A DNA stretch of 64,000 nt from an uncultured bacterium (GTDB taxonomy: Bacteria; Armatimonadota; Hebobacteria; CAIYQO01): contig CAYYJR010000001.1 in NCBI GenBank assembly GCA_964472305.1, positions 25,346 to 89,345 of the forward strand. Direction: 5' to 3'. A program made the position numbers and the translations under genes. The notes under the pieces were generated by a model. The model did no database searches. It worked only from the letters and a program-made list of their open reading frames with translations, and was not told the origin of the DNA. Below, one piece after another: positions 26,334-29,117 of the stretch. Positions within the stretch are counted from its first letter, which is position 1. Each line of letters opens with the position of its first letter.

Positions 26334-28517
26334 TTATTCCGTCTTCGCCGCCCGTTTCACCGCGCCGCGTTCGACGGCTTTGAATTTGCAGACGCGGAAA
26401 CAGGCGCCGCATTTGATGCATTTCGGCTGGTCGATGACATGCTTTTGGCGCGGTTCGCCGGCGATGCAGCCGACCGGACAGGCGCGGCGGCAGGCGCCGC
26501 AGCCCACGCACGGGTCGGGGAGGATGGTGTAGCGCACCAGTTCGCGGCACACGCCGGCGCGGCAGAAACCGTCCTGGATATGCTCCAGATATTCATCATG
26601 GAAGTGGTGCAAGGTCGAGAGCACCGGGTTGGGCGCGGTTTGTCCCAGACCGCACAGGCTGGCGCGGGCGATAGTGTGCCCCAGTCGCTCCAGCAGTTCG
26701 ATGTCGCGCAGTGACCCCTGACCATGCGTGAGGCGGGTCAGGATTTCCAGCATGCGTTTAGTGCCTTCACGACAGGGCGTGCATTTGCCGCAGCTCTCGT
26801 CCTGGGTGAACTGCAGGAAGAAGCGCGCCACGTCCACCATGCAGTCGTCTTCATCCAGTACAATCATGCCGCCGGAGCCCATGATAACACCGGCGCGGGT
26901 GAGCGAATCGTAATCCACTTCGGTGTCGAGCAGGCTTTCCGGCAGGCAACCGCCCGACGGGCCGCCAATCTGCACCGCTTTGAACTTGCGTTTGTTGCGG
27001 ATGCCGCCGCCCACCTCGAACACCGTCTCGCGCAGGGTGATGCCCATCGGCACCTCCACCAGTCCGGTGCGCTCCACCTTGCCGGCCAGCGCGAAGACCT
27101 TGGTGCCTTTGCTCTTCGCGGTGCCGATGCCGGCGAACCACTCCGCGCCGTGCAGCACGATAGGCGGCACGCACGCCAGCGTCTCCACGTTGTTGATGCA
27201 GGTGGGACAGCCCCACAGGCCGCTGGTGGAGGGAAAGGGTGGGCGGGGGCGCGGCATGCCGCGCTCGCCCTCGATGGAATGGATCAACGCGGTCTCTTCG
27301 CCGCACACGAATGCCCCGGCGCCCAGCCGCAGCTCGATATCGAAATCGAAGCCGCTGCCGAGGATATTCGCGCCCAGAAATCCCGCCGCGCGCGCCTGGG
27401 TGATAGCCTGGCGCAGCCGACTCACCGCCAGCGGATATTCCGAGCGGATGTAGATAAAGCCGTGATGAGCGCCGATGGCAAAGCCGGCCAGCGCCATCCC
27501 CTCCAGGACGGTATGCGGATCGCCTTCCAGCAGGTTGCGGTCCATGAACGCACCGGGATCGCCCTCGTCGGCATTGCAGATGATGTATTTCGTCGTTCCG
27601 GCGGCGGTGCGCGTGTCGCGCCACTTCACCCCGGTGGGGTAGCCGCCACCGCCGCGTCCGCGCAGCCCGCTGTCGATCATTGTCTGCATCACCGCGTCCG
27701 GCGTAATGCCGGTCAACGCCTGCGCCAACCCCTGATAGGCCCAGGTGACCAGCGCGTGATCGAGCGATTCGGGATCGATAACCCCGCAGTTGCGGGTGGC
27801 GATGCGCAGTTGTCGCAGCGCCACCCGCGGCACGTTCTGCGTGTGCACGAACATCGGCACCGCCTCGCGGTCGGTGAGCAGCGCCTGCACCGGAGTTCCC
27901 CCCAGCAGGTGTTCGGTCACCATCTGCCGGGCTGCGTCGGGAGTGGGCAGACTGTAAACGAAATCGCCAGGTTCCATAATCAGGGTGGGCGCTGCCTGGC
28001 ACTTGCCCGGACAGCCCATCTCCGCGATCGTCACCGATGCGGACAGCCCATGCTCGTGCAGCGCATCGGTCAGCGCCCGTAACACGGGACGATGGTCGGT
28101 GCGCGGGCACTGCGGGCCGCCGCACATCACCAGCCGAAAGCGCGCGGTACCGTCTACCAGGTGCGTTTCCAACGGCGGCTGGCCGGTCAGGTGGCGATGC
28201 AGCACATCGTGAGCGAGCGCGGGGGTTAGCTTGCCGTAGAGGAACGGCATCGCGCCGCGCGGCATCACCTCCACCAGAGGCTCGGCGTGGCACTGTCCGA
28301 TACAGCCGACGCGCTTCAGCATCACGCCGGGTAGTCCGGCGCGGGTGATCTCCTCTTGCAGCGCGTTCCATACCGCCTCTGCCCCGGCGCTGATGCCGCA
28401 GGTCGCCATGCCGATGCTGATCTGCAGGCGCACGTGTTCCTGACTTGCCGCCTGGCGGGCTTCCGCCGCCGCGCGCGTCTGTACCAGCCGTTCGAGCGGG
28501 GTCATCGCGAGAGTCAT
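26334..28517 (-). CDS. hydB: NADH-binding flavoprotein subunit of hydrogenase (HydB/NuoF-like) with two N-terminal thioredoxin-like [2Fe-2S] domains
   Basis: NuoF signatures (GGGGYPTGVKW, ICNADEGDPGAFMDR, ESCGKCTPCREG), two C-terminal 4Fe-4S ferredoxin motifs, and two N-terminal Trx-like Fe-S modules (GCIGQCHAEP; GCPGKCQAAP). ATG 28517 with SD AGGAAGG. Confidence 0.85.
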   Translation of the reverse strand: MTLAMTPLERLVQTRAAAEARQAASQEHVRLQISIGMATCGISAGAEAVWNALQEEITRAGLPGVMLKRVGCIGQCHAEPLVEVMPRGAMPFLYGKLTPALAHDVLHRHLTGQPPLETHLVDGTARFRLVMCGGPQCPRTDHRPVLRALTDALHEHGLSASVTIAEMGCPGKCQAAPTLIMEPGDFVYSLPTPDAARQMVTEHLLGGTPVQALLTDREAVPMFVHTQNVPRVALRQLRIATRNCGVIDPESLDHALVTWAYQGLAQALTGITPDAVMQTMIDSGLRGRGGGGYPTGVKWRDTRTAAGTTKYIICNADEGDPGAFMDRNLLEGDPHTVLEGMALAGFAIGAHHGFIYIRSEYPLAVSRLRQAITQARAAGFLGANILGSGFDFDIELRLGAGAFVCGEETALIHSIEGERGMPRPRPPFPSTSGLWGCPTCINNVETLACVPPIVLHGAEWFAGIGTAKSKGTKVFALAGKVERTGLVEVPMGITLRETVFEVGGGIRNKRKFKAVQIGGPSGGCLPESLLDTEVDYDSLTRAGVIMGSGGMIVLDEDDCMVDVARFFLQFTQDESCGKCTPCREGTKRMLEILTRLTHGQGSLRDIELLERLGHTIARASLCGLGQTAPNPVLSTLHHFHDEYLEHIQDGFCRAGVCRELVRYTILPDPCVGCGACRRACPVGCIAGEPRQKHVIDQPKCIKCGACFRVCKFKAVERGAVKRAAKTE

Positions 28518-28634
28518 CGGTGATACCGCCTTCCTGTGTAAGCGAATGGCGACAACAACTGTTGCCGTGCGCCACAATTCGCGGAATAGCCTGTGCCACG
28601 AAGGTGTTCCGGTTAACGGGTGGGCGAGGGAAGG

Positions 28635-29117
28635 TTAAATGCCGACTTGCAAGCGGTCGGGTTTTTCAATCTCTTCCATAATGTCGCCGTCGATCTTGAA
28701 GCCTTTTAAGACGAAGTGCGTGGTGGTGCTCAACACGTTTTCCAGCGTGGCGAGTTTGGTCGTGACGAAGTTGGCGATCTCGCGCAGATCCCTCCCCTCC
28801 ACAACTACGTGTAAATCGTAGCTGCCGGAGAGCACGTATAGCGAGCGTACCTCGGAGAAGCGCATGATGCGCTCGGCGATGGCGTCGAAACCGAATTCGC
28901 GCTGTGGGGTGACCTTCACCTCGATGAACGCCTGCGTGCGCGGCGTGCTGTCTACGCGCTCCCAGTTCACCACCGCTTTATACTTGCGAATAGTGCCATT
29001 CACCTCGGCTTCGGCGATGAACCGGCGCACGTCATCGAGTGGCTTTCCGCTACGTTCCGCCAACTGCTCGATACTCAGCCGTCCATCCTGCTCCAACATG
29101 CGAAGAATCTCATGCAC
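28635..29117 (-). CDS. Lrp/AsnC family transcriptional regulator
   Basis: 160 aa; N-terminal HTH (MHEILRMLEQDGRLSIEQLAERSG) and C-terminal RAM/ligand domain pattern (YDLHVVVEGRDLREIANFV). Confidence 0.85.
   Translation of the reverse strand: MHEILRMLEQDGRLSIEQLAERSGKPLDDVRRFIAEAEVNGTIRKYKAVVNWERVDSTPRTQAFIEVKVTPQREFGFDAIAERIMRFSEVRSLYVLSGSYDLHVVVEGRDLREIANFVTTKLATLENVLSTTTHFVLKGFKIDGDIMEEIEKPDRLQVGI

Follow-up and report, generated by a model that had tools for sequence, protein, structure and literature searches.

How can two genes encode a hydrogenase whose relatives are built from three or four subunits, and does the regulator gene next to them belong to it? Both questions are raised by three co-directional genes in the ORF list of the window (the whole stretch of 64,000 nucleotides analysed here, from an uncultured member of the Armatimonadota). 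All three lie on the minus strand: an Lrp/AsnC-family transcription factor gene (28635..29117; PF01037 and HTH_24), hydB (26334..28517; 727 a.a., a NuoF-like FMN/NAD(H) subunit) and hydA (23862..26186; 774 a.a., an M3-type [FeFe]-hydrogenase catalytic subunit carrying a fused NuoE/HydC module). A sequence-only reading of this DNA had described a two-gene HydA+HydB module, which the Pfam and NCBIfam domain content supports, and had placed it at 26334-29117; that interval spans hydB and the Lrp gene only, and hydA with its NuoE module lies outside it. Judging from sequence comparisons, we consider it very likely that hydB and hydA together code for a cytoplasmic group A3 (HydABC/BfuABC-type) [FeFe]-hydrogenase of Armatimonadota, in which an ancestral hydD-hydB-hydA-hydC set of genes was compressed to two by two in-frame fusions. 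Identical proteins are on record for both HydA (at NCBI) and HydB, and the NCBI-named Armatimonadota relatives of HydA share 81% identity with it (80.6% by tblastn).

HydA has the architecture of M3 [FeFe]-hydrogenases. Its Pfam domains are Fer2_4, NADH-G_4Fe-4S_3, Fer4, Fe_hyd_lg_C, Fe_hyd_SSU and 2Fe-2S_thioredx; residues 4-207 (PF13510 Fer2_4, PF10588, PF22117 and Fer4) provide the [2Fe-2S] and 4Fe-4S domains of BfuA, in the definition of the BfuABC/HydABC family that we used (Schut et al. 2022, PMC9304861). The H-cluster domain is encoded at 24654..25511 (minus strand; PF02906, E 7.5e-79). The protein scores 447 against TIGR02512 (FeFe_hydrog_A; cut-off 406), and its best PDB matches are HydA1 of T. 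kivui (8a6t, E 5e-166) and HydA1 of A. woodii (7q4v, E 3.5e-160).

The C-terminus of HydA holds a complete NuoE-like module (23895..24308, minus strand), comprising a helical bundle and a thioredoxin-like [2Fe-2S] domain. PF01257 matches it over its full length (profile positions 7-144 of 145, E 2e-47), and the NCBIfam HoxE/NuoE models match residues 613-765, which bears out the earlier claim of a NuoE-like fusion at this end of HydA. Its ligand motifs CVGTAC (24099-24116) and CIGAC (23979-23993) form an intact Cx4C...Cx3C set, and these four [2Fe-2S] cysteines are invariant in the alignment of 37 fused homologues. The NuoE-like (IPR002023/PF01257) [2Fe-2S] module that defines BfuC thus forms the C-terminal end of HydA instead of a subunit of its own. 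In the AF2 model, residues 611-674 are helical and are followed by a beta/alpha fold (686-773). The alignment and the model place a linker of about 46 residues (24309..24446, minus strand) between the small-subunit domain and the NuoE module; pLDDT dips there at positions 583-585 and near 600, and its length and sequence vary among the 37 fused homologues. We considered the linker motif CAGCHGGC (24354-24377, minus strand) as a conserved metal site and rejected it: a loose Cys pair is found only in the Armatimonadota clade, and nothing is retained in the other fused clades. As the sequence-only reading had stated, there is no separate HydC: a Pfam scan of the ~50 ORFs of the window gave no NuoE/HydC gene.

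HydB starts at an ATG at 28517, preceded by a Shine-Dalgarno sequence (AGGAAGG). Along the protein we find a first fold (residues ~30-122), a second fold (~126-215), the NuoF core and a C-terminal 2x[4Fe-4S] domain. The core and C-terminal domain (26370..27773, minus strand; FMN/NADH site, SLBB, B1, B2 and B3/B4) are matched by PF01512 (E 4.7e-46), PF10531, PF10589 (E 5.8e-35) and, at the C-terminus, Fer4/Fer4_7, so that HydB has all the domains that define BfuB (NuoF FMN, SLBB, NuoF [4Fe-4S] and 4Fe-4S ferredoxin-type). The best PDB matches of the whole protein are 9bov_B, 7t2r_B and 7q4v_B (E ~1e-220). The ligand residues are C576/579/582/622 for B1, H646, C652, C657 and C684 for the His+3Cys site B2, and C670/673/676/680 and C700/703/706/710 for B3/B4; these sets, from C576 to C710, are kept in 103-120 of 120 homologues.

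The Pfam and PDB matches confirm the earlier description of two thioredoxin-like modules ahead of the NuoF core, and they do not support calling them duplicated or assigning a [2Fe-2S] cluster to both. Domain 1 (28152..28430, minus strand) belongs to a different, 3Cys+Glu subtype: its signature is ATCGISAG ... GCIGQCHAEP, with C40, C72, C76 and E79 kept in 116-117 of the 120 homologues. Its matches are the N-terminal folds of 9n5u_B, 9bov_B and 8oh5_B (E 2e-12 to 2e-11); we take these three PDB entries to be NfnB/StnB-type subunits. NfnB/StnB subunits (of NfnABC in Csac, and of Stn) share with domain 1 a thioredoxin fold with SCG...GCxGxCxxEP, and have only this type of fold, whereas HydB adds a second, 4-Cys [2Fe-2S] fold. 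In NfnB of Csac the 3Cys+Glu site of this fold is reported to be a Zn site (PMC11829005). The same signature is found in stand-alone small ORFs upstream of hydB in four of the related loci that we compared (L005, L006, L007 and L011), of which domain 1 is the counterpart. Domain 2 (27873..28142, minus strand; the 'B5' site) is the canonical thioredoxin-like [2Fe-2S] fold and alone carries the 4-Cys set, in CGGPQC ... CPGKC (C132, C137, C169 and C173; Cx4C...Cx3C), the four cysteines being kept in 105-109 of the 120 homologues. Domain 2 finds its matches in the N-terminal domains of 7t2r_B and 7q4v_B and in thioredoxin-like ferredoxins of Aquifex and Azotobacter, and the PF01257 match to it is partial. 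Nor is the double-fold HydB rare, as had been implied: 108 of the 120 best homologues have this form, with about 720 a.a., and it was published in 2024 (PMC11406978).

Where the extra modules came from can be read from the gene arrangements of related loci. Each of the modules D, B, A and C has a gene of its own in L005 and L006 (D|B|A|C); A and C are joined in L011 (D|B|A-C), D and B are joined in L018 (D-B|A|C), and both pairs are joined in L003, L012, L014 and the window (D-B|A-C). The two-gene form is found in eight loci of the Armatimonadota clade, at 78-88% identity. In L004, hydC begins 15 nt past the TAA stop of hydA in the same frame, so that removal of this single stop would join the two genes. 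This series suggests that the window holds what was a hydD-hydB-hydA-hydC operon before two fusions reduced it to two genes: a HydD/BfuD-like small 3Cys+Glu thioredoxin-fold protein would have been joined to the N-terminus of HydB, and a NuoE-like HydC to the C-terminus of HydA through the linker. By sequence, then, domain 1 of HydB is a fused HydD/BfuD-like module, not a duplication.

Since the source is probably a MAG, and the HydA and NuoE frames abut or overlap in L004 and L009, one could suppose that the genes are in reality separate and only look fused through an error of assembly or annotation (for example a frameshift, or a stop codon that was overlooked). This is extremely improbable: the ORFs of the window are continuous, the fused HydA frame is uninterrupted in 37 clusters (90% identity), which represent several phyla and independent samples, and the fused form of HydB is found in >100 clusters. 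Fusions of NuoE to HydA are spread over at least four phyla. These counts do not come from the search of 50%-identity representatives, in which the whole subfamily is one fused representative and which is useless for counting fusions; the UPGMA clustering on identity is indicative only.

If the two-gene enzyme works like its homologues, the H-cluster of HydA would be the site where H2 is formed or cleaved, electrons would pass from the HydA F-clusters through the [4Fe-4S] cluster B1 of HydB to FMN, NAD(H) would bind at this FMN, and the [2Fe-2S] cluster (C1) of the tethered HydC would form, with B3/B4 of HydB, a low-potential branch to ferredoxin. Such a branch would couple NADH plus reduced ferredoxin to H2 (confurcation/bifurcation) in an alpha-beta protomer. 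All BfuB and BfuC cofactor ligand sets are present and conserved across homologues (120 for HydB and 37 for fused HydA), and the closest solved relatives are HydA/HydB of the bifurcating T. kivui and A. woodii enzymes and the B subunits of NiFe-Bfu and NfnB. What the tether fixes to HydA would be the helical N-terminal part of HydC, which is one element of the static platform seen in solved Bfu structures, and the mobile thioredoxin-like domain that bears C1 would stay free; the fusion should therefore not alter the mechanism. A BC core with a mobile C-terminal domain of HydC has been described (PMC10021017, PMC11829005), and repeated toleration of HydC-HydA tethering is consistent with structural models that keep the N-terminal part of HydC immobile.

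It is only the presence of the B3/B4 clusters, as predicted from their ligands, that points to bifurcation rather than plain NADH dependence. A non-bifurcating, purely NADH-dependent hydrogenase as in S. wolfei, with an extra fold and fusions that play no part in a ferredoxin branch, would agree with the best NCBIfam model of HydA, NF040763 ('NADH-dependent [FeFe] hydrogenase, group A6'), which is a near miss (756.2 bits, cut-off 765; the alignment spans model positions 1-570 of 571). At NCBI this family name is given to relatives at 52-61% identity, and the function of the double B5 has been called unclear (PMC11406978). The name is an annotation label, however, not an assay of the clade, and HydB retains both markers of the bifurcating type, the His+3Cys B2 site and the 2x[4Fe-4S] B3/B4 ligands, whereas HydB of the non-bifurcating S. 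wolfei type is marked by the absence of B2 and B3/B4 (as summarised in PMC11406978). We therefore regard an NADH-only enzyme as unlikely.

Compared with known systems, the predicted bifurcating enzyme is an ordinary variant, whose parts and each of whose fusions are already known elsewhere. In classic hyd/hnd operons the hydC gene precedes hydB and hydA. Hnd (HndABCD) of D. fructosovorans and HydABCD of Caldanaerobacter (Thermoanaerobacter) tengcongensis are tetramers of the same four modules as in the window (hydrogenase, NuoF-like, NuoE-like and small thioredoxin-like), but they are encoded by four separate genes in another order, and the window encodes two polypeptides. HydABC of T. kivui and A. 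woodii (8a6t, 7q4v) and of T. maritima (7p5h) resembles the window in the M3 architecture and H-domain of HydA and in the HydB core, the Zn/B2 site, B3/B4 and the NuoE-type [2Fe-2S] module; in these three, however, HydC is separate and HydB has one N-terminal thioredoxin-like domain, not two. Sub-type III BfuABC of Hydrogenedentota and relatives has the gene order B-A-C and a 'double B5' BfuB, with an ancestral BfuD inferred (Zheng & Huang 2024, PMC11406978). The window agrees with this 'BAC' type, in that B is followed by A, C is the tail of A, and HydB has two folds; it differs in that BfuC of sub-type III is a separate gene. The authors of that study considered BfuD lost, whereas the synteny series here points to its fusion onto BfuB, and so accounts for the 'double B5' BfuB of 2024 as a fused HydD/BfuD subunit. 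We found no explicit description of bacterial HydA-HydC fusions in the literature; the only precedent that we found is the hydrogenosomal polyprotein of Nyctotherus ovalis, whose [FeFe]-hydrogenase likewise carries NuoE-like sequence as a C-terminal extension (PMC4967309), but which is from a ciliate, i.e. eukaryotic, has NuoF in the same chain too and has none of the HydB-type N- and C-terminal Fe-S domains. No new kind of enzyme and no new regulatory link is revealed; the main value of the locus lies in the evolutionary series, in which related operons show the four modules in every state from four genes to two, and a Bfu hydrogenase of two polypeptides could ease heterologous expression and the mechanistic dissection of bifurcation.

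The statement that no maturase genes are in the window also holds: none of HydE, HydF and HydG (radical SAM proteins and the HydF GTPase) was found in the Pfam scan of its ~50 ORFs, and none is visible in the flanks of the relatives. The holo-enzyme can therefore not be confirmed from the window, and the genes for the maturases must lie in another part of the genome.

The Lrp/AsnC gene ends 117 nt upstream of hydB, and all its NCBIfam matches are below cut-off. It is the first gene of the co-directional block, as had been noted; this position is kept in no relative. We observed no Lrp homologue in 18 related loci, including eight close relatives; the genes upstream of hydB vary between relatives, and in L018, where no Lrp gene was called, a Rex gene is found in its place. 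The conserved association of regulator and operon that characterizes an Lrp/AsnC-regulated operon is thus not seen, and the regulatory role implied earlier loses its footing. One could still read Lrp-hydB-hydA as one operon in which the hydrogenase pair is a sensory or accessory module, regulated by an Lrp/AsnC protein of its own in response to an amino-acid or other small-molecule signal: the three genes are co-directional, and consensus scans (weak evidence) gave minus-strand promoter-like sites only upstream of the Lrp gene and no terminator-like site between it and hydB. Against the absence of Lrp from all 18 loci and the differing upstream genes, together with a HydA in which Pfam found no PAS or sensor domain, such a module is quite unlikely. 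Because it is absent from the related loci, Lrp is probably not a dedicated regulator of the hyd genes, and we take its gene to stand beside them by an accident of local gene order and to share, at most, their transcript. Co-expression within the hyd pair is a separate matter. The 147-nt spacer between hydB and hydA (26187..26333, minus strand) contains a 60-nt hairpin (26241-26300; RNA fold -61.8 kcal/mol, z = -3.0) that occurs once in the window; in relatives the two genes overlap or the gap is occupied by inserted genes, with one to four unrelated genes in half of the close relatives. Given these insertions and the structured spacer, strict co-expression of hydB and hydA is not assured.

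The H-cluster loops of HydA depart from the group A reference signatures (L1 TSCCPxW, L2 MPCxxKxxE and L3 ExMxCxxGCxxG, with four Cys ligands). L1 is TSCSAAW (25266-25286), L2 is MCCTAKKWE (25092-25118) and L3, EIMGCPGGCIGG (24657-24692), is intact, all on the minus strand. L1 has Ser at the position of C300 in CpI and has no loop Pro, and L2 has MCC instead of MPC; in the absence of this Pro and in MCC, HydA differs from the T. kivui, A. woodii and T. maritima enzymes. The Ser corresponds to Ser301 of A. woodii, at the same [4Fe-4S]H ligand position, and the A. woodii HydA with its Ser ligand is active (PMC10021017). We therefore dropped, as a main finding, the idea that TSCSAAW marks an inactive or novel enzyme, the more so as the TSCS[AS]AW/MCC motif pair is common to 113 of the 120 best homologues. 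That this large subfamily has altered properties of the H-cluster pocket is a speculative proposal, and we think it improbable. If it holds, the extra Cys of L2 beside the ligand Cys might allow a ligand swap onto it, and the Pro-less L1 loop may be more flexible, in which case, by analogy, the distal Fe could become capped by the relay Cys, leaving the resting state protected from O2. Such capping by the relay Cys, with an O2-protected resting state, is reportedly found in CbA5H of Clostridium beijerinckii. An O2-protected state would suit facultative or microaerobic hosts, for example among the Armatimonadota and Planctomycetota.

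The window (G+C content ∼62%) carries three genes in succession on the minus strand: an Lrp/AsnC-family regulator gene (28635–29117; 160 a.a.), hydB (ORF 26334–28577, with a likely ATG start at 28517 that is preceded by AGGAAGG; 727 a.a.) and hydA (ORF 23862–26225, with a likely ATG start at 26186; 774 a.a.). Both hydrogenase proteins are identical to those recorded at NCBI. The two-gene hydrogenase module described in the sequence-only reading is real; the interval assigned to it, 26334–29117, contains hydB and the Lrp gene but leaves out hydA (23862–26186), the bearer of the fused NuoE module. 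Searching ∼50 window ORFs against Pfam turned up no radical-SAM or HydF gene and no further NuoE or NuoF gene, in agreement with the earlier statements that the window has neither maturase genes nor a separate HydC.

Pfam matches in HydA comprise Fer2_4, NADH-G_4Fe-4S_3, two 4Fe-4S motifs, Fe_hyd_lg_C (E = 7.5e-79), Fe_hyd_SSU and a NuoE module of the thioredoxin-like [2Fe-2S] type, present at full length (PF01257, positions 7–144 of the 145 in the profile, E = 2e-47). The HoxE and NuoE models of NCBIfam likewise hit residues 613–765, and these matches bear out the claim that a NuoE-like module is fused to the HydA C-terminus. The AF2 model of HydA (mean pLDDT 74.5) has a low-confidence linker, followed by helices at 611–674 and a thioredoxin-like beta/alpha fold at 686–773; by the fusion, HydC would be tethered to HydA through its helical N-terminal part. 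Katsyv et al. 2023 (PMC10021017) showed for HydC that the thioredoxin-like domain at the C-terminus is mobile and the remainder fixed. Between the small-subunit domain of the hydrogenase and the NuoE module, the linker carries the sequence CAGCHGGC (24354–24377, minus strand). Of 19 Armatimonadota-clade sequences, 18 keep a CxxxC-like Cys pair at this site; the other fused clades do not.

Of the H-cluster motifs, L3 is retained, as is the ligand Cys of L2. L1 reads TSCSAAW (25266–25286, minus strand) versus TSCCPxW, and L2 reads MCCTAKKWE (25092–25118, minus strand) versus MPCxxKxxE: a Ser occupies the [4Fe-4S]H ligand position, the loop Pro is lost and an extra Cys stands beside the L2 ligand Cys. 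The L1 Ser is of the Acetobacterium woodii type; in A. woodii HydA, Ser301 replaces a [4Fe-4S]H Cys ligand and the enzyme is fully active (Katsyv et al. 2023, PMC10021017). TSCS[AS]AW together with MCC is common to 113 of the 120 best homologues, and this combination is absent from the PDB alignments inspected (T. kivui, A. woodii and CpI).

At the HydB N-terminus, Pfam and NCBIfam give a weak thioredoxin-like/DUF1636 match and then a partial PF01257 match; the remainder consists of the NuoF FMN domain, SLBB, the [4Fe-4S] region of NuoF and, at the C-terminus, a 2x[4Fe-4S] ferredoxin domain. A PDB search with residues 1–228 cleanly separated two folds. Domain 1 (residues 32–122) aligns with the fold at the N-terminus of three B subunits (9n5u_B, 9bov_B and 8oh5_B; E-values 2e-12 to 2e-11) and contains three Cys together with an invariant Glu (ATCGISAG ... 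GCIGQCHAEP), with C40, C72, C76 and E79 kept in 116–117 of 120 homologues. An equivalent site (B5) in Caldicellulosiruptor NfnB is reported with Zn, its ligands being three Cys and one Glu (PMC11829005). For domain 2 (residues 126–215), the matches are the [2Fe-2S] domain at the N-terminus of 7t2r_B and of A. woodii HydB, as well as the Aquifex and Azotobacter thioredoxin-like ferredoxins; this domain has the canonical Cx4C...Cx3C set (kept in 105–109 of 120 homologues). HydB had been described as having duplicated [2Fe-2S] domains: there are two thioredoxin-like folds, but only domain 2 has the canonical 4-Cys set, and since the folds differ in structural matches and ligand sets the description is inaccurate.

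Among solved structures, the nearest are those of bifurcating HydA1 and HydB from T. kivui and A. woodii, along with the B subunits of NiFe-Bfu, Nfn and Stn. All ligand sets of the Bfu BC core (B1, the His+3Cys B2 site, B3/B4 and C1) are present in the window proteins; by homology, an enzyme that links H2 turnover to NAD(H) and ferredoxin would be expected. In its architecture, this is a known enzyme family in a compact variant, and for each of the two unusual features there is a precedent. Sub-type III BfuABC has a 'BAC' gene order (not reported before, according to the authors), and its BfuB carries FeS domains described as 'double B5', whose function is called unclear; the authors also inferred an ancestral BfuD (Zheng & Huang 2024, PMC11406978). 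In the Nyctotherus hydrogenase, NuoE and NuoF are fused to the HydA C-terminus (PMC4967309); the literature searched, whose coverage is incomplete, gave no explicit account of a bacterial HydA–HydC fusion. Considering the 120 best matches for each protein (for HydB, clusters at 90% identity), the double-fold form of HydB (at least 700 a.a., ∼98% coverage) accounts for 108, with source names including Omnitrophota, Auribacterota and Endomicrobiia. Full-length fused HydA accounts for 37 (taxa named: Armatimonadota, Margulisiibacteriota, Sumerlaeota and Dependentiae), all 37 keeping the four NuoE Cys.

Scanning the representative genomes of GTDB and looking up homologues yielded 18 related loci, which together with the window show four arrangements of the modules D (HydD/BfuD-like), B, A and C. 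All four are separate in L006 (a 146-a.a. domain-1 ORF, a 599-a.a. HydB with domain 2 and the core, a 604-a.a. HydA and a 194-a.a. NuoE ORF, in this order) and in L005, where the D–B gene pair is located apart from A–C. In L011 (Sumerlaeota), D and B are separate and A–C is fused. L018 (2127–9022 on a 765-kb contig) has the reverse: Rex, a 728-a.a. HydB with both folds, a 586-a.a. HydA, a 165-a.a. HydC and then a B12-binding radical-SAM gene. Both pairs are fused in the Armatimonadota-type loci (the window, L003, L012 and L014) and, with extra genes between hydB and hydA, in L013, L015, L016 and L017. The stand-alone domain-1 ORFs share the signature VGMATCGISAG...GCVGRCDxEP with domain 1 of the window. 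From synteny, the simplest reading is that the window would be a hydD–hydB–hydA–hydC operon compressed by two gene fusions. In L004 (an Omnitrophota MAG; 5734–5754), the hydA TAA stop is followed 15 nt on by a same-frame hydC start with its own AAGGAG, so that one lost stop codon would yield the fusion. Rough identity clustering of HydA cores (not a proper phylogeny), in which unfused clusters are as near to the window as other fused clusters, hints that HydA–NuoE fusion may be recurrent. A lone fused HydA–NuoE gene was observed in L001 (8001–10271; its cluster has named members from Margulisiibacteriota); the flanking 8 kb on each side contain no hydB.

The 147-nt spacer between hydB and hydA (26187–26333) folds into a long hairpin (26241–26300; fold z-score −3.0) with perfect 8-bp ends (TAGACGCC/GGCGTCTA), which occurs once in the window and could be a processing element, an attenuation element or an insertion scar. 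Close relatives have inserted genes in this gap (L013, 5581–6918; L015, 987–2375; L016, 2101–5967; L017, 3786–5799): three loci have a GH32 glycoside hydrolase there, one has DUF4253 with two other ORFs, and another has an IS200-type Y1 transposase with a 448-a.a. ORF. The gap looks like a hot spot for insertions.

The Lrp gene does precede hydB on the same strand, as first noted, but a dedicated regulatory link finds no support in the relatives: none of the 18 related loci has an Lrp homologue, and the gene upstream of hydB varies (CvpA-like in L012, GreA in L013, prepilin-type in L014, an ORF without Pfam match in L017), the upstream regulator in L018 being Rex, not Lrp. In consensus scans, all promoter-like sites lay upstream of the Lrp gene and none of the terminators fell between this gene and hydB, so that the two may be co-transcribed.

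The neighboring window genes are housekeeping and glycoside-hydrolase genes. An OmpR/GlnR-type response regulator gene (GlnR_1st + Trans_reg_C; 23051–23743, plus strand) is convergent with hydA, an arrangement retained in the closest relative, L015 (70% identity). Two large ORFs (42006–45596) have no Pfam match. On the minus strand are a gene for a 663-a.a. protein with ankyrin repeats and a C-terminal FGE-sulfatase (formylglycine-generating-enzyme-like) domain (20941–22932), a glycoside hydrolase cluster encoding two melibiase/GH36-like proteins and one GH95 (33066–40816), and a tandem pair of signal peptidase I (S26) genes adjoining the rplS–trmD ribosomal cluster (7579–9838).
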